From sequence record KC295538: DNA of 64,000 nt; one strand, 5' to 3'. This stretch comes from Escherichia phage PBECO4. Shown in pieces: positions 36,619 through 55,825 of this stretch (the first letter of the stretch is position 1; every line of letters begins with the position of its first letter). The notes under the pieces were generated by a model, which saw only the letters and a program-made list of their open reading frames with translations, had not been told where the DNA came from and ran no database searches. The translations under genes and the position numbers were made by a program.

Positions 36619-36828
36619 TTAATCCTTCGTTACGCTAACGATTATCTGTGTATCCCCGTAGTCCTGCCATACTTCCACGCCATCGGTCGCCCTGGTTAGT
36701 CGTGCTGTCATCTGCTTAATGGTCTTAGGCTTTAGTGGAACCTGTTGCAGTACTGTACGCATAGCATCATTGACGTTATCATGTACGCCTGCAATAGTAC
36801 CTAGAACGCTGTATACTGTATAGAACAT
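36619..36828 (-). CDS. hypothetical protein
   Basis: 69 aa ORF; AGGAG SD. Confidence 0.55.
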   Translation of the reverse strand: MFYTVYSVLGTIAGVHDNVNDAMRTVLQQVPLKPKTIKQMTARLTRATDGVEVWQDYGDTQIIVSVTKD

Positions 36829-36896
36829 ATGTATGTACTCCTGATATAGTTAAGGCCGCTACAAGGCGGCCTATGATGTTTGGTGATGTGTAACGC

Positions 36897-37298
36897 TTAC
36901 AGTCCTAAGATAGTGCGTGCTTCGTTACGTTCCGTACACAGCTGCATGATGTGAGCAAGTAAGTCCTTGCTAATGTATCCGTTGTCCATAGCTTCACGGA
37001 TAGATACATCATAAGCACCGAACCCCGTGCGAACGATACGCACATCATTCAGGTTAGTATTATAGATACCGCCGAGATCAACGGCTTCGAATACTACATC
37101 AACAGAATATTCATTGTTGCCATCGTGGAAGTTTTCCAGTGCAATAGTATTGGATACCGCCCAACGTTTGCAGTTTCCAATGATGCGGCACTGTTCCGGT
37201 TGGATAGTGCCATTACTTACAGCGTACTCCAGTGCATCTTTACCGAAAGTCCGAGCCAGTACTAAAACGTCAGCGAAGGAATTGATTGAGAAGGTCAT
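36897..37298 (-). CDS. hypothetical protein
   Basis: Start moved to ATG at 37298 downstream of leader hairpin and AGGAG SD. Confidence 0.6.
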   Translation of the reverse strand: MTFSINSFADVLVLARTFGKDALEYAVSNGTIQPEQCRIIGNCKRWAVSNTIALENFHDGNNEYSVDVVFEAVDLGGIYNTNLNDVRIVRTGFGAYDVSIREAMDNGYISKDLLAHIMQLCTERNEARTILGL

Positions 37299-37318
37299 GA
37301 TAAAACTCCTTAATTTAG

Positions 37319-37380
37319 GAGGGAGAACCATTTCCCCCTCTCTATGTAAAACATTATACTTGATTCTAAGTACTATGCAA
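37319..37380 (-). promoter_or_regulatory. sigma70-like promoter + 5'-leader stem-loop (PeSL-like cassette)
   Basis: minus strand TTGCAT-N16-TATAAT, then gagggggaaatggttctccctc hairpin, then AGGAG-ATG. Confidence 0.6.
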
Positions 37381-37387
37381 GTACTTT

Positions 37388-37720
37388 TTACATTTTAATT
37401 CCTGGATTCAGGTAACGGTGAGATCCATATTCTGGATAGGTTTCGTTCCAGTACTGTAAATCGATAGTACCTTTCGCGTTAATCTTGTCTACCAGCTTAT
37501 TCATCTTAGCGTATACTACGTCAGCATCGATGCGTTTAAAGCCAGTAGCTTTAGTGAAGTAGTAGTGATTTGCTTCACTATCATTAAGGATATACCGAGC
37601 ACCGTTTGCAGTCTGTGCGATAATGATTGAGTATTCTACTTCCCGATCCAGACCGTCGATGAATACAGATGAAACATTGGTACGGATGAAAGCTTTAACG
37701 ATAGCGATTGAAGTACTCAT
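37388..37720 (-). CDS. hypothetical protein
   Basis: 110 aa ORF. Confidence 0.6.
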   Translation of the reverse strand: MSTSIAIVKAFIRTNVSSVFIDGLDREVEYSIIIAQTANGARYILNDSEANHYYFTKATGFKRIDADVVYAKMNKLVDKINAKGTIDLQYWNETYPEYGSHRYLNPGIKM

Positions 37721-37870
37721 TTTGAATCTCCTAACTTTGTGGGCCGTCGCACCATTGCCGCCCTACGAGATACATTATTGCAGTACTGATATACTTTGTC
37801 AATACTTTTTTATTAATAGTTTTAGTTCCACCAGCAGATAGTTACTCACCGTTATTAACTATATATTTTG

Positions 37871-37953
37871 GATACACTTATGCACCCTGTGGGCTGATTT
37901 GTTTCTATGCGTATATAATAGCAAAGGGACTGACCGGAGTCAATCCCTTTTTT
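37871..37953 (+). repeat. terminator-bearing repeat, copy 1 (candidate small RNA cassette)
   Basis: gatacact..gcaccctgtgggc..tatataatagcaaa + gggactgaccggagtcaatccc hairpin + T6. Confidence 0.5.
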
Positions 37954-37964
37954 ATTCTTTTTTG

Positions 37965-38165
37965 TTAGATGATTCTCCAATCATCAACGATCATGGTAAG
38001 ATACCGAACCAGTGATTCGAGTGATTCGTGTTCTCGATAGTCTGCCGCACCGCCAGCGGTACAAGTACAGCCGATTAAGCCGTTTTGCAATTCCTTAATC
38101 TGTACATCGATAAGGTTGGCTTTAGCTTCTTTCAGTACTTCAACCAGGGCGAGAGCGATAGACAT
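37965..38165 (-). CDS. hypothetical protein
   Basis: 66 aa ORF; GGAG SD. Confidence 0.55.
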   Translation of the reverse strand: MSIALALVEVLKEAKANLIDVQIKELQNGLIGCTCTAGGAADYREHESLESLVRYLTMIVDDWRII

Positions 38166-38188
38166 AATGTTTTACTCCAAACTATTGG

Positions 38189-38250
38189 CGGGAGAACTAT
38201 TCCCCCGCTCTATGTAAAACATTATACATTACTGGTTAGTACTGTCAAAT
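38189..38250 (-). promoter_or_regulatory. sigma70-like promoter + 5'-leader stem-loop (PeSL-like)
   Basis: TTGACA-N17-TATAAT then gcgggggaatagttctcccgcc hairpin. Confidence 0.65.
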
Positions 38251-38255
38251 AGTTT

Positions 38256-38513
38256 TTATGAAATATCTTCGATGTAGTCGGCCCATTTCATTTTTTCAGT
38301 ACTGTCAATGGCTACCGGATTATTTGGATCAAACCATTCACCATTACCGCAATACATACCAACGGCTACGGTTTTATAGCCATCCTGGGCCGTACACCAC
38401 GACATTGCACGATAGATATGGCCTTTAACTGGTTGCAGTACTGGTAACGTTTTATGGTCTTCTACGTAGGCCATAGCTTGAGGATTTACCCGATATTGTG
38501 TGAATTGTTCCAT
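38256..38513 (-). CDS. hypothetical protein
   Basis: 85 aa ORF. Confidence 0.55.
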   Translation of the reverse strand: MEQFTQYRVNPQAMAYVEDHKTLPVLQPVKGHIYRAMSWCTAQDGYKTVAVGMYCGNGEWFDPNNPVAIDSTEKMKWADYIEDIS

Positions 38514-38589
38514 TATGTTTCCCCTTGTAGTTAGTAAAGTTATTACATCAGTACTATCAAGCTATGTCAATAGTACTGAAATAAAACTT

Positions 38590-38814
38590 TTAGATTAGAT
38601 TATTGAGGCCGTCAATGGTAGACTCACTTTCTTCTTTCTCCCATTGTCGGTAGTACTTCCATGCTTCATGATAGGTGGCGATTAGTTCATCTTTTTGATC
38701 CTGGTTACATGCCAGTACTGAATCACGGTGAGCGGTGTTATAGATAGAATCGAATGATTTCTTCTCTTCTGCCAGGTTAGCTACTTCCCGCATCAGTTCA
38801 TCAAAGTTAGCCAT
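38590..38814 (-). CDS. hypothetical protein
   Basis: 74 aa ORF. Confidence 0.55.
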   Translation of the reverse strand: MANFDELMREVANLAEEKKSFDSIYNTAHRDSVLACNQDQKDELIATYHEAWKYYRQWEKEESESTIDGLNNLI

Positions 38815-38832
38815 TTTATTACTCCTTTTAGT

Positions 38833-38889
38833 GGGGGAGGATATCTCCCCCTATGCAAAACATTATACTTTGTTTTAGTTATTATGCAA
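38833..38889 (-). promoter_or_regulatory. PeSL-like promoter + leader hairpin
   Basis: TTGCAT..TATAAT then gggggagatatcctccccc hairpin. Confidence 0.6.
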
Positions 38890-39145
38890 GTACTTTTTTC
38901 ATATAAACATTAAATTCTACACCGCCGTAACCTTCCACGATGATATGTTTTGCGTTATCACGTTTGCACATAGTGAAACCATCGTTTACGTGTTTTGCAT
39001 TTTCCAGGGCGACATCACCGATAGCGGCACATACAGCACTAATAACGATATTCCGCAAAGTACTGGTATCATTAGCGGTCATAGTAGTTTGCATGATTAC
39101 GTTGTCGTATACGTGTGCATTGATAGTGATTTCGATAGTGTTCAT
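38882..39145 (-). CDS. hypothetical protein
   Basis: 87 aa ORF; AGGAG SD. Confidence 0.6.
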   Translation of the reverse strand: MNTIEITINAHVYDNVIMQTTMTANDTSTLRNIVISAVCAAIGDVALENAKHVNDGFTMCKRDNAKHIIVEGYGGVEFNVYMKKVLA

Positions 39146-39162
39146 GGTGTATCTCCTGGACT

Positions 39163-39224
39163 GGCGGGAGAACTATTCCCCCGCTCTATGTAAAACATTA
39201 TACGTTAATCTAACTACAATGCAA
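39163..39224 (-). promoter_or_regulatory. PeSL-like promoter + leader hairpin
   Basis: TTGCAT-N17-TATAAT then gcgggggaatagttctcccgcc. Confidence 0.6.
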
Positions 39225-39231
39225 GTACTTT

Positions 39232-39423
39232 TTAAATTTTATTTCCGATATAGTCTGGCCTGTTCTTTTCGGTCATACGCTTAAGCATTTTTTGCATATG
39301 GCTTATTGCTTGTAGTGTATCCTCTTCCAGGGATGAATCGAGATAATCAGGATCATTCTTCACCTTGCAATGATTATGATAGCGTAGTACTGCCAGTACT
39401 TTTTTAACTTCTTCAACTGTCAT
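39232..39423 (-). CDS. hypothetical protein
   Basis: 63 aa ORF. Confidence 0.5.
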   Translation of the reverse strand: MTVEEVKKVLAVLRYHNHCKVKNDPDYLDSSLEEDTLQAISHMQKMLKRMTEKNRPDYIGNKI

Positions 39424-39692
39424 AATAAGTACTCCACTTCGTTAGCTTTCAGGTTAGTATCAATCATCAATGGTTTTTTGTAGTTCACAAAACGATTAGT
39501 TTTTTCGATAGCGAATCCCATATAATCCAGCTTACTAACAGTACATTCATTCTTAAAAACTTCTTTCGCTGCATCGATGGCTGATTGCATGGATAACCGA
39601 CCATCTAAATTAATGTTTCCAAATGATCCACCAGCAGAAGTAGGATTACCGTTCATATCTTTAATGATCATAGTAGCGGAGTAGCTGGACAT
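39420..39692 (-). CDS. hypothetical protein
   Basis: 90 aa ORF. Confidence 0.55.
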   Translation of the reverse strand: MSSYSATMIIKDMNGNPTSAGGSFGNINLDGRLSMQSAIDAAKEVFKNECTVSKLDYMGFAIEKTNRFVNYKKPLMIDTNLKANEVEYLL

Positions 39693-39713
39693 AATTTTGT
39701 TTCCTTTTAGTAT

Positions 39714-39773
39714 CGGGGAGAACTATTCTCCCCTTGATGTAAACTATTATACAGTACTAATATACTTTGTCAA
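39714..39773 (-). promoter_or_regulatory. PeSL-like promoter + leader hairpin
   Basis: TTGACA-N16-TATAAT then ggggagaatagttctcccc. Confidence 0.65.
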
Positions 39774-39776
39774 TAC

Positions 39777-39998
39777 TTAATTACGTTTAAAATGATATGT
39801 GCCTTTATCATCCTGTACGCCCCATACTGATTTACCATCAACACCAGTGAAGCCGGATTGTAATTCAATATGGAAACCATTATTATCAACTACAAAAACT
39901 TTTTTATTTTCATCCCGATAACATTGATATTCTGAATCAACATTAAAGGCCGCATCATTCAGAAGATTGGAAGCGTAAATGCAAGTCATTGTAGTCAT
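39777..39998 (-). CDS. hypothetical protein
   Basis: Start moved to ATG at 39998 (MTTMTCIY...); track N-terminus MFYIERGKRFS is the translated leader hairpin. Confidence 0.55.
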   Translation of the reverse strand: MTTMTCIYASNLLNDAAFNVDSEYQCYRDENKKVFVVDNNGFHIELQSGFTGVDGKSVWGVQDDKGTYHFKRN

Positions 39999-40017
39999 GA
40001 TTTTATTCCTTATTGCC

Positions 40018-40078
40018 AGGGAGAACCGTTTCCCCCTCTCGATATAAAACATTATACTTGATTCTAAGTACAATGCAA
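40018..40078 (-). promoter_or_regulatory. PeSL-like promoter + leader hairpin
   Basis: TTGCAT-N16-TATAAT then gagggggaaacggttctccc. Confidence 0.6.
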
Positions 40079-40120
40079 GTACTTTTTTAAAATAGTTTTC
40101 AGTACTGAATACTTATATAA

Positions 40121-40210
40121 TAGATACACTTCCGCACCCTATGGGTCAGTGAGTTATCTCTCAATGAATATATAATAGCAAAGGGACTGACCGGAGTCAA
40201 TCCCTTTTTT
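40121..40210 (+). repeat. terminator-bearing repeat, copy 2 (candidate small RNA cassette)
   Basis: TATAAT-agatacacttccgcaccctatgggtc...aaagggactgaccggagtcaatccc + T6. Confidence 0.5.
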
Positions 40211-40218
40211 AATCTTTT

Positions 40219-40803
40219 TTATCGTGTTATAGTTACGGCTTTTACATCACGCTTTTTATAGTACTGATTCCAGATATTGCGGGTTAAACCGTAATCAAGT
40301 ACTTTAATAAGGCCGTTGCGATCCTGGCCGATATTCTGTTTTCTGATATCTCTTATCGTTAGTGTTGACAGTGTATCATCAACGTGTTGTAGTGCATCAG
40401 CAAAGCGGTGCTGGCGTTCAATAGCATTACGTTTAATATTGTACTTTAATTCGTTGCACGCGTTAACGTGCTTCACACTGCCTTTACTTGCAGTACTCAA
40501 CCGATCCATAACAATAAACATATTATCAGGATCGCTTAAATGCATATGCACTTTAGCGAAGAACTGTTTCAACTGAGGGCGGTCATAGTCTAAAAAATTC
40601 CATACCCTACATTCTGTTTCATTTTGTTCTACACCCGCATCACAATTCGCGACCTTGATCACTAACCGATCATTTAAAGCGAAAACTATACGGGAAGAAC
40701 CCGCACCGATGATCTCCAGACCAGCTAACCGACAAGCTGAAAGGATCTCTTTGTTGGTTTCCATTGCTGACAGGGTACGGATGAATTTAGTATAATTACG
40801 CAT
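40219..40803 (-). CDS. putative protein kinase (minimal eukaryotic-like kinase fold)
   Basis: Gly-rich loop IGAGSSRIVF, VIKV lysine, DIRKQN catalytic-loop-like, DYG (DFG-like), all in canonical order; start moved to ATG at 40803 with AAGGAG SD. Confidence 0.55.
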   Translation of the reverse strand: MRNYTKFIRTLSAMETNKEILSACRLAGLEIIGAGSSRIVFALNDRLVIKVANCDAGVEQNETECRVWNFLDYDRPQLKQFFAKVHMHLSDPDNMFIVMDRLSTASKGSVKHVNACNELKYNIKRNAIERQHRFADALQHVDDTLSTLTIRDIRKQNIGQDRNGLIKVLDYGLTRNIWNQYYKKRDVKAVTITR

Positions 40804-40831
40804 TGCATGTTCTCCTTGAGTTAATGAAACT

Positions 40832-40860
40832 ATCTTACAGTACTTTACTATCAATGGCAA
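40832..40860 (-). promoter_or_regulatory. sigma70-like promoter
   Basis: minus strand TTGCCA-N17-TAAGAT upstream of kinase-like gene. Confidence 0.5.
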
Positions 40861-41077
40861 CTACTTTTTTTACACTAACCGCGTGAATCACTTCCTTAGT
40901 GTTTTTAGTACTGAATACTTTCGCCGTGCCTTGTTCTACTGCAATACGATAACGACCGTTAACATCAACCATATTAATAAAGTCCGGTGTACTAAACCGA
41001 GTAGTTTTACATTTCAGTACTGTTAACAGTTCCACCAGCGATGTGGTTTCTTTGATACGTTTTTCTAAAGTAATCAT
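40835..41077 (-). CDS. hypothetical protein
   Basis: Start moved to ATG at 41077 (MITLEKRIKE...). Confidence 0.5.
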   Translation of the reverse strand: MITLEKRIKETTSLVELLTVLKCKTTRFSTPDFINMVDVNGRYRIAVEQGTAKVFSTKNTKEVIHAVSVKKVVAIDSKVL

Positions 41078-41130
41078 TTTGTTTTCCCCGTGTTGGTATG
41101 TACATATAGTACTAAAACATTTGAGTACTG

Positions 41131-41385
41131 TCAACGTGATATTAGTTTTATTTTCTTATTATATTGTTGATGTTCATAAAGGTTTATCTTTCCTGTGTTC
41201 TCTATTACTATTCTGTTGTTAGTGTCTACATCGATTACACGCAGTTTTCCGTTGCTTAACTTCCTTGGTAATAGGTTACCATTAATAAACTCATTAGCAA
41301 GCTGTACGGCCTTTGTGATGATTCTCTGAGGTGCTTTATAGTGTACCCGCAAGATATTATCTTTAGATAGTTGTACCTTAATCAT
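41131..41385 (-). CDS. hypothetical protein
   Basis: 84 aa ORF. Confidence 0.55.
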   Translation of the reverse strand: MIKVQLSKDNILRVHYKAPQRIITKAVQLANEFINGNLLPRKLSNGKLRVIDVDTNNRIVIENTGKINLYEHQQYNKKIKLISR

Positions 41386-41406
41386 TTTAGTTTATCCTAT
41401 AAAAAA

Positions 41407-41425
41407 GGCGGGAACTGATCCCGCC
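41407..41425 (-). terminator. intrinsic terminator
   Basis: ggcgggaactgatcccgcc hairpin followed on minus strand by T6. Confidence 0.6.
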
Positions 41426-41447
41426 GTGTTGTTAGTACTGCAAGTTA

Positions 41448-41843
41448 TTAGATAACCTGTCGGCGTTTACTATATACTGTTACACGATTACCCTTACGGT
41501 CGTGTCGGATCTCTTTCTGGTTGCGTACCAGTTCACTTGGACGCTTCAGGTTTGCCAGGTGATCCGCGTGAGTCCAAGCGGTATGGTTTGTCTGTACTTT
41601 GATATCAGAATCAGCGATAAACTCATCTTGTGCATCAAGTATTGACGCCAGTAAATCCGCTCGTTTTAGTTCTGCTGCTGTTAGTACTGGCTCCGGTGAA
41701 TTCACAATATCAGAGATCTCTTTGAACTGTACGGCCCAGCGTTGACCTTTCGGTGCATCTTTGCCCATGTCTTTAAATGTTTCGCCTTCCTCGCGTGCAA
41801 CAATACGGGCAGCTTCACGGGTAGCGTAGAATTTAGTAATCAT
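41448..41843 (-). CDS. hypothetical protein (paralog of 54341..54607)
   Basis: shared KFYATREAARIxAR..GxTFKDMG and DRKGNRVTVY; start moved to ATG at 41843. Confidence 0.65.
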   Translation of the reverse strand: MITKFYATREAARIVAREEGETFKDMGKDAPKGQRWAVQFKEISDIVNSPEPVLTAAELKRADLLASILDAQDEFIADSDIKVQTNHTAWTHADHLANLKRPSELVRNQKEIRHDRKGNRVTVYSKRRQVI

Positions 41844-41938
41844 GGTATACATCCTATTAGTTGAGTTAGTACTACAAGTTAGAGTCTATTATAAAGTACT
41901 ATCTGGGCAATGTCAAATAGTACTTTAAATGGATTCTA

Positions 41939-42262
41939 TTACATGTCTTTCTTACGTTTTACATCGTGGTAGCGAACTGTTATTTCTTTGTTGATCTCTT
42001 CCTCGATGCGGTGAATAACTGTTTCTTTCGGGTTGAAACCTATAACGGTTTCTTTAATGATCTCCAAGCCCGTGTATTCTCCTTGTGTACCGTAACCGTA
42101 AGTAAAGGTTTCATGTCCCAGGTCTTCCCAGCGGTCGCCAATTAACGCGGACACGTAGCAAGAGTGGTAAGTGTTACCGTTCCGATCAGTCCAGCGATTA
42201 ACTTTAATGTCAAAGGAGGTTACAATTTTCAGTTCTACTTTCTGGGTAAGGATCATAGCCAT
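41939..42262 (-). CDS. hypothetical protein (paralog of 48709..49032)
   Basis: shared RWTDxxGNTYHSC.VS and DVKRKKD. Confidence 0.65.
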   Translation of the reverse strand: MAMILTQKVELKIVTSFDIKVNRWTDRNGNTYHSCYVSALIGDRWEDLGHETFTYGYGTQGEYTGLEIIKETVIGFNPKETVIHRIEEEINKEITVRYHDVKRKKDM

Positions 42263-42286
42263 TTTTATTTCTCTCTCTCTTTGTTA

Positions 42287-42350
42287 GGAGGGGAACCGTT
42301 TCCCCTCGCTTGATGTAAACTATTATACAGTACTAAGATACTTTGTCAAT
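42287..42350 (-). promoter_or_regulatory. PeSL-like promoter + leader hairpin
   Basis: TTGACA-N17-TATAAT then ggggaaacggttcccc. Confidence 0.65.
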
Positions 42351-42352
42351 AC

Positions 42353-42616: not shown

Positions 42617-42620
42617 ATAC

Positions 42621-49893: not shown

Positions 49894-49915
49894 AGCCCAC
49901 TGTTTAAGGTGGGCT
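49894..49915 (-). terminator. intrinsic terminator
   Basis: agcccaccttaaacagtgggct + T6 on minus strand; identical copy at 50628-50649. Confidence 0.65.
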
Positions 49916-49936
49916 AGTGATTCAGTACTTTAATTG

Positions 49937-50434
49937 TTATGCTTCAACTTTGCGATGAGCTTCGATCCATTCCTCGCGAGTCATACCGCTTTCTTTGATA
50001 GCGTCCAGTACTACCGCAATGCAGTTACCGCGTACAGGAATCATATGTTCTTCCCCGTTATCAAGTACTACAGTAACACGTTCTTGAATCCATTTTTTAG
50101 GTTTAGATTCTGGCTTATCTTCACCATACTTAACCGCCAGGGCTTTATGTGCCATTTCTACAACTACTTCCAGATCCAATCCAGCCACCGCCGCCTGGAT
50201 ACTTTCGATTGTTGCTTGCAGTTCGGCTTCACGGGCTTTTTTCTGTTCTTCCAGTTCTGCTACCTTTTTGGCTTGCAGTTCTTTAGCTTCACTGTACGCA
50301 ATGTTAAAATTGTTGCGTACTGCTTTCATGGTATCGTTATCCAGGTCAGCCAACAATTCAGCAGCAATAACAGTATCGTTTGAAATCAGTGCTTTCAGGA
50401 ATGATTTTACATTAGCCATTTTATAAATCCTCAA
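49937..50434 (-). CDS. hypothetical protein (predicted coiled-coil, basic C-terminal region)
   Basis: 165 aa ORF; heptad-like AELEEQKKAREAELQATIESIQ. Confidence 0.6.
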   Translation of the reverse strand: MRIYKMANVKSFLKALISNDTVIAAELLADLDNDTMKAVRNNFNIAYSEAKELQAKKVAELEEQKKAREAELQATIESIQAAVAGLDLEVVVEMAHKALAVKYGEDKPESKPKKWIQERVTVVLDNGEEHMIPVRGNCIAVVLDAIKESGMTREEWIEAHRKVEA

Positions 50435-50454
50435 TTAAAGTTTAGTTTACGTTT

Positions 50455-50555
50455 ATTAGTGTATCAAAGTTTTATCGACGTGTCCAGTTTTTCGTTCGAC
50501 TTACTGGCGGTCTACTTAGTGCTCCCCGTCTTGATGTAATACATTCTACGCCTTT
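50455..50555 (-). promoter_or_regulatory. long conserved 5'-leader element (copy 2, variant)
   Basis: gtccagtttttcgttcgacttactggcggtctacttagtgctccccgtcttgatgtaatacattctac. Confidence 0.4.
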
Positions 50556-50627
50556 TTGTGGTAATGTCAACTACTATTTTAAAACTATTTTTAAAGTATG
50601 CAGTACTACGATAATACAAAAACAAAA

Positions 50628-50649
50628 AAGCCCACTGTTTAAGGTGGGC
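50628..50649 (-). terminator. intrinsic terminator
   Basis: same hairpin + T-run as 49894-49915. Confidence 0.65.
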
Positions 50650-50667
50650 TAGTGATTCAGTACTATA

Positions 50668-50967
50668 TTATAAACAGTTAATTACTCCGGTGTGCGTTAC
50701 TTTCTCAGTATCCATAACCGTGACCGATCCACGCTTAGTACTTACATCGTAATAAATTGTCGTGCTACCTTTTTCGTCTTCTTCATGGAACGGGCCGCTT
50801 TTAAATGCTTCTGGCTGGATCTCTAAATCCTTTAAAACAATCTCGCCAGTACTTTCATCTGTCATCGCAACAGTGCACTGAATGAATTTTTCACTACTTA
50901 CATCTAACGACGCATTAACAGCGAAAGAGGAAACAGATAAAGCCAGGGCGATGATTGCAATTTTCAT
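50668..50967 (-). CDS. exported small protein (signal peptide)
   Basis: MKIAIIALALSVSSFAVNA / SLD: hydrophobic core with AxA-type cleavage motif. Confidence 0.6.
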   Translation of the reverse strand: MKIAIIALALSVSSFAVNASLDVSSEKFIQCTVAMTDESTGEIVLKDLEIQPEAFKSGPFHEEDEKGSTTIYYDVSTKRGSVTVMDTEKVTHTGVINCL

Positions 50968-50987
50968 TTGATTATCCTTAGTTACCA

Positions 50988-51046
50988 GGGGGAACCGCTC
51001 CCCCGTGCGATGTAAAATATTGTACAGTACTAAAAACTAATTGCAA
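50988..51046 (-). promoter_or_regulatory. PeSL-like promoter + leader hairpin
   Basis: TTGCAA..TACAAT then gggggagcggttccccc. Confidence 0.6.
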
Positions 51047-51051
51047 GTACT

Positions 51052-51288
51052 TTATGATTTTTTATAAAACATTTCGGCAGTAATATTTTTACCCGTTGGT
51101 TGTACTTTATCCAGAATTTTTTGATGCCCTGGCCGTCCAAATGAATATGATCCGTAAACCGTAAACCAGTAGTTACCCTCAGTGTTTACATGTACAGCAC
51201 AATAGGGAACGCCCCGCGATTCATCACCAATAAAGTGTGATACCGTTCCCGTTACATTAGCAGACGTTGATTTGATTTGTTCAAGCAT
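51052..51288 (-). CDS. hypothetical protein
   Basis: 78 aa ORF. Confidence 0.55.
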   Translation of the reverse strand: MLEQIKSTSANVTGTVSHFIGDESRGVPYCAVHVNTEGNYWFTVYGSYSFGRPGHQKILDKVQPTGKNITAEMFYKKS

Positions 51289-51309
51289 TTTCTTATTCCT
51301 TAGTTACCA

Positions 51310-51363
51310 GGGGGAACCGCTCCCCCTATGCAAAACATTATACGCGTTTAAAAACTAATAGCA
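51310..51363 (-). promoter_or_regulatory. PeSL-like promoter + leader hairpin
   Basis: promoter then gggggagcggttccccc. Confidence 0.55.
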
Positions 51364-51397
51364 AGTATTTTAATAAAAAGTATTTGAAAAATAATTG

Positions 51398-51426
51398 TTG
51401 ACAACTGCATCCAGTACTGGCATAAT
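51398..51426 (+). promoter_or_regulatory. plus-strand sigma70-like promoter (antisense to flanking genes)
   Basis: TTGACA-N17-CATAAT, reading into ..ctaacccaccgggtgc.. element. Confidence 0.5.
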
Positions 51427-51506
51427 TACTACATCAAGACGAAACAGTCACTAACCCACCGGGTGCCGAGATCCGTCTATTAAATGATTCAGTACTTAAC
51501 AATAAA

Positions 51507-51524
51507 GGGGATCAATCGATCCCC
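51507..51524 (-). terminator. intrinsic terminator
   Basis: ggggatcaatcgatcccc perfect palindrome + T-run on minus strand. Confidence 0.55.
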
Positions 51525-51530
51525 TATGTA

Positions 51531-51752
51531 TTACTTAGTAAGGTATAAACAGAAGTCACCTTTATTTGCTACGCCGCCAGTGTAACGCGATGAATAGTTA
51601 GAAACGTCCTGGACTTCTGCTATTACCAGTGTATCATCATTCAATTCGTCGCAGAAGCAAACGGCTGGATCTTTTACGCCGATCTTGTCGGCATGTTCCC
51701 GCATAGATTTAACCAGTGCTTCCAGTTGAGAAAGAGTAGTGATATTAGCCAT
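51531..51752 (-). CDS. hypothetical protein
   Basis: Start moved to ATG at 51752 (MANITTL...). Confidence 0.55.
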   Translation of the reverse strand: MANITTLSQLEALVKSMREHADKIGVKDPAVCFCDELNDDTLVIAEVQDVSNYSSRYTGGVANKGDFCLYLTK

Positions 51753-51771
51753 TGTATTTTCCTCATTACCA

Positions 51772-51830
51772 GGGAGAACCATTTCTCCCCTCTATGTAAA
51801 CTATTATACAGTACTGAAAACTAATTGCAA
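51772..51830 (-). promoter_or_regulatory. PeSL-like promoter + leader hairpin
   Basis: TTGCAA-N16-TATAAT then ggggagaaatggttctccc. Confidence 0.65.
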
Positions 51831-51836
51831 GTACTT

Positions 51837-52025
51837 TTAATTAAATTCCATAAAATCATTCTCAACGTGCACAACAATTTGATTGTTTTTAAAGTCCGCA
51901 GCGAACTCGATGCAATCATAAACCGCTTTTTGTGTTACAATGCTATGAGTACCAATCGGATTAATAGGGGATTGAATTGTTTCAATCTCGTTCCCTTGCT
52001 CATTAACAATTAAAATATTAAACAT
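51837..52025 (-). CDS. hypothetical protein
   Basis: 62 aa ORF. Confidence 0.5.
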   Translation of the reverse strand: MFNILIVNEQGNEIETIQSPINPIGTHSIVTQKAVYDCIEFAADFKNNQIVVHVENDFMEFN

Positions 52026-52081
52026 CGCTGTTACTCCTGGGTAGTGTTAACTCGATATAAAGTATTATACGCCTTTATTGC

Positions 52082-52288
52082 TTAGTGTCCAGTACTTTTT
52101 AAAACATATTCATAAACACTACGCACATCATTGATCATCGCCTGGCGGTTAGCAGGTAACGCACCAGGATCGCCACTATCCCAGGCATTGATAAAACTCC
52201 CCAAATCATGAAAGATTTTATTCTGTAAGCCGATTAACTGCAATTCTTTTTCTTCAAGCTCTTTGATACGGTCAATTAAAAGACTCAT
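52082..52288 (-). CDS. hypothetical protein
   Basis: Start moved to ATG at 52288 (MSLLIDRIKE...); GAGGAttatctaATG context shared with next gene. Confidence 0.55.
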   Translation of the reverse strand: MSLLIDRIKELEEKELQLIGLQNKIFHDLGSFINAWDSGDPGALPANRQAMINDVRSVYEYVLKSTGH

Positions 52289-52305
52289 TAGATAATCCTC
52301 AGTAC

Positions 52306-52593
52306 TTAATTGTAAGATCCGCAACGGTTACAATAGTGCCCGTCTTCCTCGTCATCGTCAACGAATTGACCGACGAAATTATCTACTTTCTCTTTGAGAT
52401 TCTGATAATTGTTTTCAACTTCCTTTAGACGTTCCTGGTAGTATTCCAGGGCTTGCACATACGCCGCCTCAGCCGTTTTCGCTCTTAAGGCTAAATTCAT
52501 GCCACGCGTTTCATCGTACATCCAAAAGCCATCGGTGCACTCACTGATTGACAATGATTTGGTTAACACTTTATAGTCAATTACTTTGCTCAT
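52306..52593 (-). CDS. hypothetical protein
   Basis: Start moved to ATG at 52593 (MSKVIDYKV...) after ggcgggtgtggttcccgcc hairpin. Confidence 0.55.
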   Translation of the reverse strand: MSKVIDYKVLTKSLSISECTDGFWMYDETRGMNLALRAKTAEAAYVQALEYYQERLKEVENNYQNLKEKVDNFVGQFVDDDEEDGHYCNRCGSYN

Positions 52594-52649
52594 TAGATAA
52601 TCCTCAGTAAAGGCGGGAACCACACCCGCCATTGATTCAGTACTGAATG

Positions 52650-52889
52650 TTACATTCCAACCATTGCAGCACGGATCGCCGTAGTGCTATACTTGAATCC
52701 GTCCGGTGTTGTAGTAGTACCGTTGGCTTTTAATCTGCGGTACATACATTGGGCCGCAATATCTTTAGTTTTACATTGTGCGATGCAACTTTGAGCAAGC
52801 CGATATAATGACTCACCGTTATTAATCCACAATGAAACATTCCAATGAGTTTTGTTTTTGTGCCCGTTGTAAGTTTTAGTAGTAGCCAT
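52650..52889 (-). CDS. hypothetical protein (paralog of 54698..54937)
   Basis: 79 aa; shared GHKNKTHWNVSLWINN and TPDGFKYSTTAIRAAMVGM. Confidence 0.65.
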   Translation of the reverse strand: MATTKTYNGHKNKTHWNVSLWINNGESLYRLAQSCIAQCKTKDIAAQCMYRRLKANGTTTTPDGFKYSTTAIRAAMVGM

Positions 52890-52911
52890 TTTTAAATCCT
52901 CGTTTAATTGA

Positions 52912-52973
52912 GCGGGAGAACCATTCCCCCGCCTCGATATAAAGTATTATACGCTTTTAAACTTAGTTTGCAA
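52912..52973 (-). promoter_or_regulatory. PeSL-like promoter + leader hairpin
   Basis: TTGCAA..TATAAT then gcgggggaatggttctcccgc. Confidence 0.65.
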
Positions 52974-52985
52974 GTACTTTTTAAA

Positions 52986-53597
52986 TTAATATGCGATTGA
53001 TTCTACTACGTCATCAATAACATTGAATTGATACTCGTTACCCTCGATCAGTGCCGTGATGTTCTCAGTAGTGAATTGATCCTCATATGCATTCTCTAAA
53101 TCACGGTACAACTTGCGGGACAATTCACGAATAGTATCAGTGAGTAGTTCCTCAAGCTCATTAACTAACGTTTCTTGTTTTGCGGTTAAATCAGTGTAAG
53201 CCGATTCAATGTACCCGCTTACAGTATTCTCATGCGAGTAGTGGGAGTGCGAACGCTTTACACTCATCGCCAAATCATCTTCATTCAGCAAGTGACGGAT
53301 TGAGCGATACTTAGTTAATGCTCTTACCTTGCGTAAAAACTTCACTGCGTCAACGTGGTCAGTACTGATTGATGCACCGTCACCCTGGGACCAAAAACCA
53401 CTGAATTGTATTTCAGCTTCATTAATGCCATATTCCGGTAGTACTGTTTCTTTATAGTATTCAATTTCACTTTCAGAAAAATAATTGTCGTTTGAGTTTT
53501 TTTCACGTTCCCGAACCAGTTCGATAGCTGACGTTTGTTGTTCTGCGTTCAATTCAGAAAAATCCATAACGAAAGTAGTAGTAGTGATAGTTTTCAT
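52986..53597 (-). CDS. hypothetical protein
   Basis: 203 aa ORF; largest gene of cassette region. Confidence 0.6.
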   Translation of the reverse strand: MKTITTTTFVMDFSELNAEQQTSAIELVREREKNSNDNYFSESEIEYYKETVLPEYGINEAEIQFSGFWSQGDGASISTDHVDAVKFLRKVRALTKYRSIRHLLNEDDLAMSVKRSHSHYSHENTVSGYIESAYTDLTAKQETLVNELEELLTDTIRELSRKLYRDLENAYEDQFTTENITALIEGNEYQFNVIDDVVESIAY

Positions 53598-53652
53598 TTT
53601 GTAACCCTCATTCAGTAGTTGATGTAAGTATTATACGCTTTTAAAAACATTT

Positions 53653-53760
53653 GTCAAACTATTTTATCAGGGGAGTTTTTCGTGTGCCTTACTCCTGGGC
53701 TACTTAACGGGAAGTTACTTATTTCGTTCCCCGTCCTGATGTAAAACATTATACGCCTTT
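53653..53760 (-). promoter_or_regulatory. long conserved 5'-leader element (copy 3) with tandem promoters
   Basis: near-identical to 42962-43060; second TTGACA..TATAAT promoter closer to the ATG. Confidence 0.5.
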
Positions 53761-53818
53761 AAACATAGTTTGCAAGTACTTTTTAAAAATAGTTTTCAGT
53801 ACTGAATATTAAAAAAGT

Positions 53819-53847
53819 ATTGACAGCATTATCAAGTACTGGCATAA
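53819..53847 (+). promoter_or_regulatory. plus-strand sigma70-like promoter
   Basis: TTGACA-N17-CATAAT; convergent with a minus-strand TTGACT..CATAAT promoter ~100 bp away. Confidence 0.5.
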
Positions 53848-54022
53848 TATACCACATGACAACAGCTAACCCACCGGGTGCACAATTGTAACTATACTAA
53901 ACTAATTTTTCTATAGATACACTCCCGCACCCTATGGGCTACGGCTTATCTGCCAATGAATACATTATGCCAGTACTGACAAAATAAGTCAATACCGGCA
54001 ATTGTAAAGATTTGTAAACTAC

Positions 54023-54253
54023 TTATACTGCAATCGCGTCCAGGCTATAATAATAATAAGTGCCGTATTGGTGTACTTTATTACCTTTTATTTCAGTACT
54101 GAATGAATCCGAACGATTTGCATATGATGTTAATTTAAAGTACTTTGATTTGCTGATACGTTGCCATACACCACAGATCCGCTGTAAGTAAGTAGTTTTA
54201 TTCGTGGTAGTATCTTTTACGGTTTTAACTTCAGTCATATACATATTAGTCAT
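54023..54253 (-). CDS. hypothetical protein
   Basis: 76 aa ORF. Confidence 0.55.
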   Translation of the reverse strand: MTNMYMTEVKTVKDTTTNKTTYLQRICGVWQRISKSKYFKLTSYANRSDSFSTEIKGNKVHQYGTYYYYSLDAIAV

Positions 54254-54273
54254 TTTTATTACTCCAGGTTATA

Positions 54274-54333
54274 GGCGGGAAGAGTTCCCGCTCTCGATGT
54301 AAAACATTATACGCCTTTAAACATAGTTTGCAA
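54274..54333 (-). promoter_or_regulatory. PeSL-like promoter + leader hairpin
   Basis: TTGCAA..TATAAT then gcgggaactcttcccgcc. Confidence 0.65.
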
Positions 54334-54340
54334 GTACTTT

Positions 54341-54607
54341 TTATTCAAGTACTGCAATCTTTTTAGTACGGTACACGGTCACGCGGTTGCCCTTTCGGTC
54401 GAGCTTTATTTCTACCACTCGACGCGATACACTATCGGGACTTTTTAAGGCCGCTAACCAGTACTGTAATGATCTGGCTGTACTACGCTTTACAATGGCC
54501 CAACGTTTACCACGTTCCGATTGTACGCCCATATCTTTAAACGTTGCCCCGTCCTGGCGTGCGGCGATCCGAGCTTGTTCACGCGTCGCAAAATACTTAA
54601 TATTCAT
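54341..54607 (-). CDS. hypothetical protein (paralog of 41448..41843)
   Basis: Start moved to ATG at 54607 (MNIKYFATREQ...). Confidence 0.65.
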   Translation of the reverse strand: MNIKYFATREQARIAARQDGATFKDMGVQSERGKRWAIVKRSTARSLQYWLAALKSPDSVSRRVVEIKLDRKGNRVTVYRTKKIAVLE

Positions 54608-54697
54608 GCTGTTGCCCTTATCGTTGGTGTATGAATAAAACACTATTATAAAGTACTATCGCAAAAAATGATAGTACTTTAAATAAATTCTATTCTA

Positions 54698-54937
54698 TTA
54701 CATTCCAACCATCGCCGCACGGATCGCAGTAGTGCTATACTTAAAGCCGTCCGGTGTTTTATCTTGTCCAGTCTGTTCTAAAAATAGCATCATATGACGG
54801 GCCGCATCATTACGATTAGTATTGGCGGCAATAAAGTCCTGGGCCAACCGATACAATCCCTCATCGTTATTAATCCAAAGGCTTACATTCCAATGAGTTT
54901 TGTTTTTGTGACCTAAGAACATTTTTGATTTAGCCAT
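54698..54937 (-). CDS. hypothetical protein (paralog of 52650..52889)
   Basis: Start moved to ATG at 54937 (MAKSKMFLGHKNK...). Confidence 0.65.
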   Translation of the reverse strand: MAKSKMFLGHKNKTHWNVSLWINNDEGLYRLAQDFIAANTNRNDAARHMMLFLEQTGQDKTPDGFKYSTTAIRAAMVGM

Positions 54938-54957
54938 TTTTTTAATCCTCTTATATA

Positions 54958-55016
54958 GTGGGGAACTATTCCCCACCTGATGTAAAGTATTATACGCTTT
55001 TAAATTTAGTTTGCAA
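54958..55016 (-). promoter_or_regulatory. PeSL-like promoter + leader hairpin
   Basis: TTGCAA..TATAAT then gtggggaatagttccccac. Confidence 0.65.
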
Positions 55017-55019
55017 GTA

Positions 55020-55253
55020 CTATTTTTTCAGTACTGGTAAACCTTTGATCTCACCTGGCTGTACTTCCTCAAAGGCGACCGCCATCATACGGCTATCATC
55101 TTCCTTACATTCTTCCATCGCATCACAAAAATGATTAATAACGTCCGGTGCAACGTCAACCACATCAAACAAGCCAACCTCAGTGCAACGGCTTAAAGCG
55201 TTTAATAGGTCAGTCAGTGCAACGGATTGAGAAACAGTTAAAATAGTACTCAT
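55020..55253 (-). CDS. hypothetical protein
   Basis: 77 aa ORF. Confidence 0.55.
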   Translation of the reverse strand: MSTILTVSQSVALTDLLNALSRCTEVGLFDVVDVAPDVINHFCDAMEECKEDDSRMMAVAFEEVQPGEIKGLPVLKK

Positions 55254-55273
55254 ACAATTAATCTCTTAATTAT

Positions 55274-55333
55274 AGTGGGGAACTATTCCCCACCTGATGT
55301 AAAACATTATACGCTTTTAAACTTAGTTTGCAA
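55274..55333 (-). promoter_or_regulatory. PeSL-like promoter + leader hairpin
   Basis: same hairpin sequence as 54958-54976. Confidence 0.65.
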
Positions 55334-55347
55334 GTACTTTATTAAAC

Positions 55348-55710
55348 TTATTTGTAAATTTTGCCACTGTCAGCCCATACCAGGAAACGAGGCATATTAT
55401 CCCATGCATCTTGTTTTAAATTTAAACCGTGCAATTCCTCAGTAGTTGCCATCCCTGGTACTGGCTTACTACACACCGCGAAATTTTCGCCCATATACTG
55501 ATAAACCATCGTCAAATCATTTGAGATCATCTTATGGATCATCGCATCAAGCATCACGGTAGCGGCGTATTGTTCACGCTTAAGCGGCAGCATTTTAATC
55601 AGTTCGCGGTATGCGTCAATGTGAGTTTTAACCGTTGCCGCCGGAAGATCTTTCATCTCGTCGCGGAAGTTAACCAGGTTAGCAATAATTTTGGTGATTT
55701 GAGTTGCCAT
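55348..55710 (-). CDS. hypothetical protein
   Basis: Start moved to ATG at 55710 (MATQITKII...). Confidence 0.6.
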   Translation of the reverse strand: MATQITKIIANLVNFRDEMKDLPAATVKTHIDAYRELIKMLPLKREQYAATVMLDAMIHKMISNDLTMVYQYMGENFAVCSKPVPGMATTEELHGLNLKQDAWDNMPRFLVWADSGKIYK

Positions 55711-55733
55711 CGTTTTAATCTCTCTTAAAGTGT

Positions 55734-55793
55734 AGCGGGAACACTTCCCGCTCTCGATGTAAAACATTATACGCTTTTATCAGTACGGTGCAA
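55734..55793 (-). promoter_or_regulatory. PeSL-like promoter + leader hairpin
   Basis: promoter then agcgggaagtgttcccgct. Confidence 0.6.
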
Positions 55794-55825
55794 GTACTTT
55801 CTACAAATACTTTTAAAATAGTTTT

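Follow-up and report, generated by a model that had tools for sequence, protein, structure and literature searches.

Promoter and leader-hairpin cassettes repeated in the putative terminal repeat of an Asteriusvirus-like coliphage

Introduction

Promoter-early stem-loop (PeSL) cassettes have been described in the T4-type phages RB49/phi1, PST/T4 and nt-1/KVP40 (Arbiol et al. 2010, PMC2839356; Comeau et al. 2014, PMC4122927); no report of them outside the T4-type lineage was found in the literature searched. Here we analyse a repeated element composed of a sigma70-type promoter followed by a GC-rich hairpin, which recurs in front of small genes on the minus strand of Escherichia phage PBECO4 (record KC295538). 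The DNA under study, referred to as the window, is a stretch of 64,000 nucleotides to which all positions refer; the repeated elements occupy its 36,619-55,800 segment, referred to as the block. An earlier examination of the letters alone (the sequence-only reading) had likened these elements to PeSL cassettes.

The two systems have much in common. Both combine a near-consensus sigma70 promoter, preceded by an AT-rich region, with an adjacent stable G-run/C-run stem-loop, and both carry a Shine-Dalgarno (SD) sequence and an ATG at the 3′ end. In both, about 100 bp are conserved and repeated before small ORFans of a hyperplastic early region, and indels or replacements between relatives are flanked by cassettes, the empty site being a single hybrid cassette. 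According to the published descriptions (PMC2839356, PMC4122927), however, the PeSL stem-loop is found upstream of the promoter, over or between the -35 and -10 elements or immediately ahead of the promoter's start site, and has been described, and tested, as terminating transcription that arrives from upstream, whereas the window hairpin is always found 8-14 nt after the -10 element, in the predicted transcript, and is without terminator features. Furthermore, PeSL carriers are T4-type phages, whereas the window belongs with jumbo phages of the genus Asteriusvirus (relatives of 348-386 kb); unlike PeSLs, its cassettes are all located in a direct terminal repeat, and cassettes and cassette-bounded genes are shared with unrelated genera. 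The likeness proposed by the sequence-only reading thus stands for promoter, stem-loop, ORFan region and shuffling, and fails for the stem-loop position and the T4-type carrier: going by the descriptions in these papers, the window cassettes are PeSL-like as regards genome plasticity and are not PeSLs by the published definition.

Other described systems bear on the hairpin itself. The T7 gene 10 (phi10) leader stem-loop, GGGAGACCACAACGGTTTCCC, is like the window hairpin a short GC structure upstream of the SD with a G/A-rich first arm, and is stated in PMC6146998 (citing Mertens et al. 1996) to make mRNA more stable and, when positioned ahead of an SD, to raise expression 1.5-3.6-fold. In T7 the hairpin begins with the first nucleotide (+1) of a transcript made by T7 RNA polymerase, whereas the window cassettes have promoters for the host sigma70 polymerase and 4-6 unpaired nt are predicted ahead of the stem; the two share no sequence homology. 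According to Emory, Bouvet and Belasco (1992; listed among the references of PMC3997798), the 5′-terminal stem-loops of ompA and papA reportedly stabilise these E. coli mRNAs, and they resemble the window leaders in placing a stable 5′-proximal hairpin before an accessible ribosome-binding site. Their protection is said to need a stem within a few nt of the 5′ end; the start sites in the window are predictions.

Finally, the promoters of the Rak2-like jumbo phages CBB (PMC5259590) and PA5oct (PMC7318152) match those of the window in clade, type and location, the terminal repeats (about 20-39 kb) holding small early genes. CBB has RpoD-like promoters with UP elements clustered in its early region and its terminal repeat (PMC5259590), and in PA5oct, a related jumbo phage, the genes of the direct terminal repeat are strongly transcribed early (PMC7318152). 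Both papers describe promoters only and report neither a leader hairpin nor cassette shuffling. No description of the cassettes was found in the accessible papers on 121Q-like, Rak2-like and rV5-like phages.

Results

A minus-strand array of promoter and hairpin cassettes

The window contains 12 exact matches to TTGACA-N15-18-TATAAT (0.29 expected), of which 11 are located at 38-57 kb on the minus strand. Complete cassettes were sought with a scan requiring a -10-like hexamer, a -35 element (up to 3 mismatches allowed) and, 5-17 nt downstream, a perfect stem of 7 bp or more that includes no fewer than 4 G-C pairs. On the minus strand of the predicted terminal repeat (36465-57442, see below) the scan returned 25 sites, comprising 24 cassettes and a true terminator at 50650. 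The plus strand of the same interval gave two sites, and the rest of the window (43 kb) gave none on either strand; in 100 dinucleotide-shuffled versions of the repeat, the mean was 0.22 sites and the maximum 2. With the addition of a variant carrying an imperfect hairpin (37802), the totals are 24 canonical cassettes and 1 variant, all on the minus strand between 37.3 and 55.8 kb (Table 1). These numbers agree with the approximately 25 units, and the hairpins with the consensus and variants, of the sequence-only reading. Its statement that nearly every small gene is so preceded was too strong: of about 58 open reading frames (ORFs) in the block, those immediately preceded by a sigma70-type promoter number 34, and full promoter and hairpin cassettes are limited to 24-25.

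The 34 promoters show no more than 3 mismatches to TTGACA-N16/17-TATAAT, and 10 are perfect. Each is preceded by an A/T-rich stretch, for example AAAAAGTAC. In the cassettes, the -35 element is TTGACA or TTGCAA, the spacer mostly 16 nt (16/17) and the -10 element TATAAT. The leader starts with the consensus (A/G)NTTTACAT(C/G)(A/G)(A/G), including a conserved TTTACAT, and in all 24 cassettes the stem follows the -10 element at a distance of 8-14 nt (mode 12), which places it at about +3 to +8 of the predicted transcript. Stems are perfect over 7-10 bp and enclose loops of 3-5 nt, the consensus being GGGGAGAA-loop-TTCTCCCC, with variants of the type GCGGGGGAA..TTCTCCCGC. Nearly all bases of the 5′ arm are purines (GGGGAGAA, GCGGGGGAA, GGTGGGGAA), those of the 3′ arm being the complementary pyrimidines; loops vary in both sequence and length (TAG, ATGG, ATGA, CGG, ACGG, ACATC and others). 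From the hairpin to the ATG there are 17-25 nt, with the SD in between. Nine promoters have the same conserved leader start and no hairpin; three others are followed by a longer structured leader instead of the simple hairpin.

The genes behind these promoters, coding for proteins of 50-133 aa, are unrelated to one another as had been claimed, with only 2 paralogous pairs among the 34. Twelve of the 34 begin with ATGGCTA (Met-Ala; e.g., 46391, 42535, 42262, 49336 and 54937); cassette homology extends into the coding region through this motif, and one mapped crossover reaches up to there. For four genes, the ORF finder chose ATGs in the loop as starts. Translation from such a loop AUG (ATGA/ATGG), or of a leaderless type, was rejected as a proper SD and ATG are found 17-25 nt downstream and the loop ATG is missing in most variants.

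The cassettes fall within the equivalent of a direct terminal repeat

The 41.4-47.0 kb portion of the window and a control segment (14-22 kb) are 91-98% identical to Escherichia jumbo phages of 348-386 kb. The closest matching records (121Q, phAPEC6, JP4, UB, SHEFM2K, TH47 and others) are all Asteriusvirus (121Q-like), and on these matches, with 94-98% identity between the window and genomes of this genus, the window phage is assigned to this group of jumbo coliphages, with a presumed genome of about 350 kb. The phage vB_Ec-M-J has an annotated direct terminal repeat (DTR) at 1-21,525. Because its position 1 aligns to window position 57,442 and its DTR end (~21525) to about 36,465, the cassette block is predicted to be inside the approximately 21-kb DTR equivalent of the window genome. 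This placement fits with the GC content, 0.38-0.39 in this interval as compared to 0.30-0.34 in adjoining DNA, and with the 20,668 bp DTR of phage Sharanji (PMC11895373). The minus-strand direction corresponds to transcription from the physical left end of the genome (57442) inward. A 94-nt cassette probe matches 8-11 places in Asteriusvirus records containing one DTR copy and 16-20 in those containing two. Gene content is mosaic even among close relatives, whose coverage of a 5.6-kb sample of the block ranges from 47% to 96%.

The first 1.6 kb or so of the terminal repeat (55800-57442, minus strand) contains no convincing gene and many short repeats: GGCTAGAYG/GGCTAAACGGCTAGAT runs at 56690-56540, four copies of TTTTGGGCGTA(G/A) and two of TTCAGTACTGAATAATAGTACTCCTATATAGAAAGA at 55915-55830. 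These may be related to genome ends or packaging. One strong promoter is found within this gene-poor start (57077-57050, minus strand). The DNA adjoining the terminal repeat on the other side (window 1-36000, and 1-8300 of a second locus) is organised very differently from the cassette block. It is tightly packed with small, mostly overlapping genes that form one family (PHROG 4148 in the SHEFM2K annotation) of more than 20 tandem paralogues, devoid of intergenic promoters or hairpins.

Cassette hairpins are distinct from the terminators of the block

In the 8 nt following the stem, all 24 cassette hairpins have 1-3 T residues, as opposed to 6-7 for the true terminators of the block. None of these hairpins is among the 23 terminator-like sites returned by a terminator scan, which detected 8-9 genuine terminators in the block, including the four separate ones named in the sequence-only reading (Table 1). 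Moreover, four canonical cassettes (51342, 49712, 46884 and 40056) and the variant at 37802 lie directly behind genuine terminators. Because of the missing U-tract and of the occurrence of cassettes right after true terminators, the cassette hairpins do not qualify by sequence as intrinsic terminators, and this interpretation was rejected; the view that they lie past the promoter, in the predicted 5′ untranslated region (UTR), and are not terminator-like was supported.

The same data bear on the classical PeSL role, according to which the stem-loop is a terminator or attenuator of upstream transcription that insulates each cassette. The G-run followed by a C-run and the intergenic site are as in the RB49/phi1 PeSLs, one of which cut lacZ expression as much as rrnB T1 (PMC2839356). 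Still, we regard this role as improbable in the window. Lying about 25 nt past its own promoter, the hairpin, if an efficient terminator, would abort the cassette's own transcripts and silence its gene; canonical terminators are present separately, and insulation would be needless for the cassettes that directly follow one.

Cassettes as sites of gene gain and loss among close relatives

Breakpoints of colinear homology were compiled against 4 relatives; they are mostly the ends of BLAST high-scoring segment pairs, with crossovers mapped only in three aligned cases. Cassettes, with 15.7% of the block, contain 24 of the 49 unique breakpoints (p = 5e-8). Considering non-coding breakpoints only, the proportion is 24 out of 26, for cassettes making up 49% of the non-coding DNA (p = 4e-6). 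Many of the "coding" breakpoints are no more than 15 nt from a start codon. In at least 5 indels, one or more window genes are found between two cassettes, and the single cassette of the relative aligns to both, with an overlap of 54-102 nt. Base by base alignment of 3 empty sites in relatives identified one chimeric cassette in each, with the crossover inside the cassette. Thus, where gene 42535-42353 is missing in SHEFM2K, the single cassette follows the left copy through the hairpin and SD and continues with the right gene after ATGGCTA; where gene 51288-51052 is missing in TH47, the switch occurs between the hairpin and the SD. Gene 55253-55020 is likewise flanked by cassettes. Because the crossovers fall at different points of the cassette, the alignments indicate ordinary homologous recombination over about 100 bp and not a site-specific event. 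The genome comparisons show the repeated cassettes to serve in this way as portable homology, recombination between two of them deleting or inserting the intervening gene(s) and leaving one chimeric cassette. The proposal that the cassettes serve as homology for shuffling was thereby strongly supported on three counts, namely the chimeric single cassettes, the breakpoint enrichment and the cross-genus junctions at hairpins described next.

Cassette junctions shared with unrelated phages

Several single genes of the block have counterparts in coliphages (about 145-150 kb) of the Stephanstirmvirinae (Justusliebigvirus, Phapecoctavirus) and the Vequintavirinae, with nucleotide identities of 84-92%. 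Three out-group loci, from RaK2, muut and A73, were compared with the window; each contains two to four cassettes of the same architecture. In muut, 513 nt comprising structured leader, promoter, 91-aa gene and the next promoter and leader are 92.6% identical to the window. Identity stops exactly at the start of the next hairpin; there muut has another variant of the hairpin, itself internally compensated, followed by a different gene. In A73, a 380-nt segment that is 85.5% identical extends from just past one hairpin to just past the next. By these alignments, cassette junctions link the window phage to unrelated coliphage groups.

A pattern scan of IMG/VR for TATAATNNTTTACATNRRGGGG returned 4 contigs: 121Q itself and contigs of 333 kb, 109 kb and 37 kb. 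The 109-kb contig, from an uncultivated virus, carries 7-8 cassettes within 12.6 kb; those of 333 kb and 37 kb look like chance matches and were discarded as cassette carriers. The 94-nt cassette had no match in 5,426 complete E. coli genomes, and a host origin or prophage carriage was dropped on this ground.

Selection on the pairing of the stem

When 8 predicted leaders were folded, the hairpin was the dominant structure (-10.8 to -17.6 kcal/mol). The SD-AUG region is unpaired in the minimum free energy structure of 6 of them, the leaders at 55251-55298 and 38163-38213 having a second, weaker helix over it. Extension of the stem through pairing of the 5′ tail with sequence past the hairpin was inconsistent across cassettes and was abandoned. 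Alignment of the 24 cassettes with MAFFT and RNAalifold yielded a poor consensus, since loops of 3 versus 4-5 nt put the arms out of register, and a loop-anchored analysis was used instead. No match to Rfam 15 was obtained in the whole window at gathering thresholds; at E <= 1, the 36-58 kb interval gave only three chance-level matches.

The composition of the stems is strand-specific: 13 of the 24 hairpins hold a 5′G·3′U pair and only one the reverse, and the opposite strand would have an A·C mismatch at such a position. Hairpins were also compared with those of orthologous cassettes in 4 relatives, with pairing not required. Substitutions amount to 8/922 (0.9%) in stems, 206/4,976 (4.1%) in flanks and 19/208 (9.1%) in loops (stem versus flank, Fisher p = 2.7e-8); stem conservation is thus 4.7x that of flanks, and loops evolve faster than the flanks. 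Pairing is retained in 7 of the 8 stem substitutions, in all cases via G·U. In a gap-free 21-nt alignment of 20 distinct hairpins, which included those from RaK2, muut and A73, 8 of 9 stem pairs have changed on both sides, with a covariation score of 0.571 as opposed to 0.232 for column shuffles (matched in 0/500) and 0.12-0.20 for slid-partner controls. In RaK2 (Alcyoneusvirus), the same layout is found with unrelated stems, GGGGATACA-tag-TGTATCCCT and GGGAATGAA-tta-TTCATTCCC. Because stems are conserved and loops are free, pairing is kept through G·U and stem pairs covary, these comparisons point to purifying selection acting on the shape of the sense-strand RNA. A DNA palindrome, or a loop sequence read by a specific protein, would not fit such a pattern.

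The possibility was considered that the hairpin has no RNA function and matters at the DNA level only, as recombination homology or hot spot, cruciform, source of replication slippage or repressor operator. The cross-genus junctions at or beside hairpins could be taken in its favour, as could the position of the inverted repeat at +6 to +26, plausible for an operator, and the mapping of one RB49 mini-circle crossover to the loop of a stem-loop (PMC2839356). This explanation is nonetheless very improbable. The G·U pairs in 13 of the 24 hairpins and those by which 7/7 pair-preserving substitutions arose would leave a cruciform, or the second half-site of an operator, with mismatches; half-sites change in a compensatory manner instead of being conserved, the polarity of the arms is always purine then pyrimidine, and crossovers within the genus map to differing parts of the cassette. 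The G·U pairs and compensatory half-site changes led us to discard the palindrome, operator and cruciform interpretations.

Other repeated elements of the window

A structured element of approximately 73-75 nt (AUCAGGACGGGG..CCCCGUUAAGUAGYCCAGGAGUAAGRCAYACGAAAAACUCCCCUGAU) is found at 53740-53666 and 43039-42967 on the minus strand, with a degenerate copy from 50535, and again in A73 (2926-3000) and in muut (~2996-2920, minus strand), hence in three unrelated phage groups. One sigma70 promoter lies upstream of it and a second, hairpin-less promoter directly after. The predicted fold is Y-shaped (-19 to -24 kcal/mol), with a closing helix AUCAGG/CCUGAU from the predicted +1. The element could be a small RNA or a long leader with a protected 5′ end.

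A second non-coding repeat, CCCAYAGGGTGC, maps at minus-strand positions 53938, 46984, 45308, 43369, 40145 and 37893, and in the RaK2 locus at 443, 1876 and 5810 (plus) and 3741 (minus). It is conserved between Asteriusvirus and Alcyoneusvirus, is always just upstream of a sigma70 cassette and has no Rfam match. Most copies are made up of a first terminator-like hairpin containing TTGACT-N17-(TG)nTATTAT, then CAT, then a small hairpin with a covarying stem (GGC/GCC, GAG/CTC, GAC/GTC, CCAC/GTGG, GCA/TGC) and an AGAUAA/AGAACA loop; the 3′ part consists of invariant CCCAYAGGGTGC, 4-5 nt and (A/G)TGTATCTAT. It is possibly a small early RNA or else a complex leader.

The 64 kb contain 258 copies of the palindrome AGTACT (extended form CAGTACTG), compared to 21.5 predicted by base composition. 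No other palindromic hexamer comes close to this number (TTTAAA, the second most common, has 83), and AGTACT is both genic and intergenic. Within promoters it appears as AGTACTGTATAAT in the spacer (e.g., 46452-46457 and 42598-42603) or as AAAGTAC-TTGCAA abutting the -35 element. It is absent from two 4-kb bins (24-28 kb and 32-36 kb). The RaK2 locus (7.1/kb) and the 109-kb IMG/VR contig (6.8/kb) are equally rich in it, whereas it is rare in the A73 and muut loci (0.4-0.7/kb). Possibly, AGTACT is a binding or modification site.

Table 1. Positions of the cassettes, other promoters, terminators and terminal repeat identified in the window (all on the minus strand; hairpin positions in parentheses)
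Position	Feature	Promoter	Leader	Remarks	Basis
55710..55793	Cassette	TTGCAC-16-TATAAT	AGCGGGAA-gtg-TTCCCGCT (55752-55734)	ATG 55710	scan
55253..55333	Cassette	TTGCAA-16-TATAAT	GGTGGGGAA-tag-TTCCCCACT (55294-55274)	ATG 55253; predicted fold -17.6 kcal/mol, z -3.8	scan, folding
54937..55016	Cassette		GGTGGGGAA-tag-TTCCCCACT (54977-54957)	ATG 54937; right-hand repeat of cassette-flanked indel	scan, alignment
54253..54333	Cassette		GCGGGAA-ctc-TTCCCGC (54291-54275)		scan
52889..52973	Cassette		GGCGGGGGAA-tgg-TTCTCCCGCT (52933-52911)		scan, folding
51752..51830	Cassette		GGGGAGAA-atgg-TTCTCCCT (51790-51771)		scan
51288..51364	Cassette		TAGGGGGAG-cgg-TTCCCCCTG (51328-51308)	directly after terminator 51525-51506	scan, alignment
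50967..51046	Cassette	-10 TACAAT	GGGGGAG-cgg-TTCCCCC (51004-50988)		scan, alignment
49651..49734	Cassette		GAGGGGGAA-acgg-TTCTCCTTC (49694-49673)	two G·U pairs; after terminator 49915-49894	scan
49336..49414	Cassette		GGGGAGAA-atgg-TTCTCCCT (49374-49355)	homology to A73 (Vequintavirinae) stops just past hairpin	scan, alignment
47750..47829	Cassette		AAGGGGAA-aacg-TTCCCCTT (47791-47772)		scan
47426..47504	Cassette		GGGGAGAA-atga-TTCTCCCC (47464-47445)		scan
46827..46906	Cassette		AGGGGAAA-cgg-TTTCCCCT (46865-46847)	after terminator 47046-47019	scan, folding
46391..46471	Cassette	TTGACA-16-TATAAT (perfect)	GGGGAGAA-atga-TTCTCCCC (46431-46412)	predicted fold -13.9 kcal/mol, z -3.7; 8-20 copies per Asteriusvirus record	scan, folding
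44699..44774	Cassette	TTGACA-17-TATAGT	AGGGGAA-acatc-TTCCCCT (44735-44717)		scan
44076..44153	Cassette		GGGGAGAA-atga-TTCTCCCC (44113-44094)		scan, folding
42535..42617	Cassette		GGGGGGAA-tgg-TTCCCCTC (42577-42559)	left repeat of cassette-flanked gene; homology to muut (Justusliebigvirus) stops at hairpin	scan, alignment
42262..42349	Cassette		GAGGGGAA-acgg-TTCCCCTC (42307-42288)	right repeat of the indel with left repeat 42535..42617	scan, alignment
39998..40078	Cassette		AGGGGGAA-acgg-TTCTCCCT (40037-40018)	after terminator 40207-40180	scan
39692..39773	Cassette		GGGGAGAA-tag-TTCTCCCC (39733-39715)		scan, folding
39145..39224	Cassette		GCGGGGGAA-tag-TTCTCCCGC (39184-39164)		scan
38814..38889	Cassette		GGGGGAG-atatc-CTCCCCC (38851-38833)		scan
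38165..38248	Cassette		GCGGGGGAA-tag-TTCTCCCGC (38208-38188)		scan, folding
37298..37380	Cassette		GAGGGGGAA-atgg-TTCTCCCTC (37340-37319)		scan
37720..37802	Variant cassette	TTGACA-17-AATAAT	imperfect hairpin GGGCGGCAATGGTGCGACGGCCC		sequence
53597..53657	Promoter without hairpin	TTGACA-16-TATAAT (perfect)	ACTTACATCAACTACTGA, unstructured	second of tandem pair	promoter scan, folding
52025..52091	Promoter without hairpin				promoter scan
49032..49104	Promoter without hairpin	extended -10, TGGCATAAT			promoter scan
46095..46158	Promoter without hairpin	extended -10			promoter scan
45816..45888	Promoter without hairpin				promoter scan, folding
43258..43313	Promoter without hairpin				promoter scan
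42896..42957	Promoter without hairpin			second of tandem pair	promoter scan
41843..41916	Promoter without hairpin				promoter scan
38513..38570	Promoter without hairpin				promoter scan
53666..53775	Promoter with structured leader		~75 nt, Y-shaped, AUCAGGACGGGG...CUCCCCUGAU (53740-53666)	first promoter of tandem pair	folding
42967..43074	Promoter with structured leader, second copy		~73 nt (43039-42967)	first promoter of tandem pair; kept in muut and A73	alignment, folding
50451..50570	Promoter with long leader, degenerate third copy				sequence, folding
51506..51525	Intrinsic terminator			stem and T-run	terminator scan
50629..50650	Intrinsic terminator				terminator scan
49894..49915	Intrinsic terminator				terminator scan
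47019..47046	Terminator-like hairpin			embedded TTGACT-N17-TATTAT	terminator scan
43399..43426	Terminator-like hairpin			embedded promoter-like site	terminator scan
41407..41425	Intrinsic terminator				terminator scan
40180..40207	Terminator-like hairpin			embedded promoter-like site	terminator scan
37923..37950	Terminator-like hairpin			embedded promoter-like site	terminator scan
36465..57442	Predicted DTR equivalent			contains all cassettes	alignment to vB_Ec-M-J DTR

Discussion

We think it rather probable that the block is an early region dependent on host RNA polymerase and built from expression and exchange cassettes of about 100 bp, in which the leader hairpin raises the yield of early mRNA. 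By analogy, the hairpin would most likely stabilise the mRNA or enhance expression in the manner of the T7 gene 10 stem-loop. A cassette consists, in order, of an AT-rich UP region, a near-consensus sigma70 promoter, the TTTACAT initial transcribed sequence, the GC hairpin, an unstructured A-rich spacer with the SD, and the ATG (often ATGGCTA). In transcripts begun at the cassette's own promoter, the hairpin would protect the 5′ region and keep the downstream ribosome site independent of context; in read-through transcripts it might also be a 3′ barrier for the mRNA of the upstream gene. Being self-contained and followed by a free ribosome-binding site, it would allow the cassette to work before any gene, as suits a recombining module. 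The structured leaders starting at 53740 and 43039 are predicted to be paired from the first nucleotide, which would fit 5′-end protection without proving it.

Several points weigh against this interpretation. In the work of Emory, Bouvet and Belasco (1992), protection was reportedly seen only when the stem-loop was about 2-4 nt from the 5′ end. The start predicted here (the A of the conserved CAT, 7-8 nt past the -10 element) leaves 4-6 unpaired 5′ nt before the stem, and simple internal stem-loops are poor obstacles to scanning by RNase E (PMC11194081). That 9 promoters with the same leader start have no hairpin implies that the hairpin is not indispensable. As to selection, the hairpins were chosen for perfect pairing, which inflates the covariation measures, the percentage of paired positions in particular (covariation beyond column composition is not affected), and many cassettes are recent paralogues, so part of the conservation is inheritance. 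As to shuffling, the breakpoints are BLAST ends, the three aligned cases aside, and the events may be insertions or deletions.

Alternatively, the hairpins might be sites for a shared trans-acting factor, RNA-binding protein or endoribonuclease, that co-regulates or cuts all early mRNAs, either for early shut-off or, in the manner of RNase III on T7 early RNA, to divide read-through RNA into monocistronic pieces that retain a hairpin at the 3′ end. The existence of one leader structure before 24 unrelated genes, with a conserved stem top (GAA-loop-TTC) and 17-25 nt to the ATG, would be consistent with such a factor, and so would the maintenance of the structure across four phage groups; furthermore, promoters far outnumber terminators, so that read-through RNAs with internal hairpins must exist. 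However, loops vary in sequence and length and evolve faster than flanks, the RaK2 stem sequences are completely different and no candidate protein was identified; we therefore find this explanation unlikely. RNase III sites were excluded, as stems of 7-10 bp are too short for this enzyme. Shared post-transcriptional control, which had been suggested from the repetition of the leader, thus gains from the selection on RNA structure and loses in its specific form, a sequence-specific repressor or nuclease being less likely given the 9.1% substitutions in loops versus 0.9% in stems.

Another explanation would have the purine-rich 5′ arm selected as an initial transcribed sequence favouring promoter escape, with the 3′ arm merely masking an SD-like G-rich stretch (GGAGG/GGGAG) from ribosomes. 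The T5 N25 promoter has a purine-rich initial transcribed sequence. In the cassettes, about 14 of the first 17 transcribed bases are purines, the 5′ arm is SD-like and the 3′ arm anti-SD-like, and arm polarity is invariant in 58 distinct hairpins. Yet the argument is drawn purely from composition, and hairpin-less promoters of equal consensus quality have ordinary leaders; we consider this the most remote of the explanations examined.

Beyond expression enhancement in one phage, we advance only as a tentative and rather doubtful idea that the promoter and hairpin unit is a common currency for expression and exchange of early accessory genes in Asteriusvirus, Alcyoneusvirus, Vequintavirinae and Stephanstirmvirinae. 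The hairpin would be both a preferred exchange junction and a handle for a host or phage factor setting the fate of all early mRNAs, making up a phage-borne post-transcriptional regulon distinct from terminator-type PeSLs.

What is new, as judged from the DNA, is that a PeSL-like system exists outside the T4 lineage and has its stem-loop in the predicted 5′ UTR. The leader position and the signs of RNA-level selection suggest that the stem-loop need not be a terminator, which reopens the question of its role in PeSLs. If our interpretation is correct, the cassettes would constitute practical parts, as compact, natural, context-independent expression units with strong promoter, insulating hairpin and ribosome-binding site, and would mark the places of accessory-gene insertion and deletion in therapeutic jumbo phages. 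PeSLs were proposed as the gene-shuffling engine of T4-type hyperplastic regions; if this applies here, cassette shuffling would be more general and include the terminal repeats of 350-kb jumbo phages, and the passage of cassette-bounded genes between unrelated coliphage groups would offer virulent phages a general route to gain ready-to-express genes for host takeover or anti-defence.

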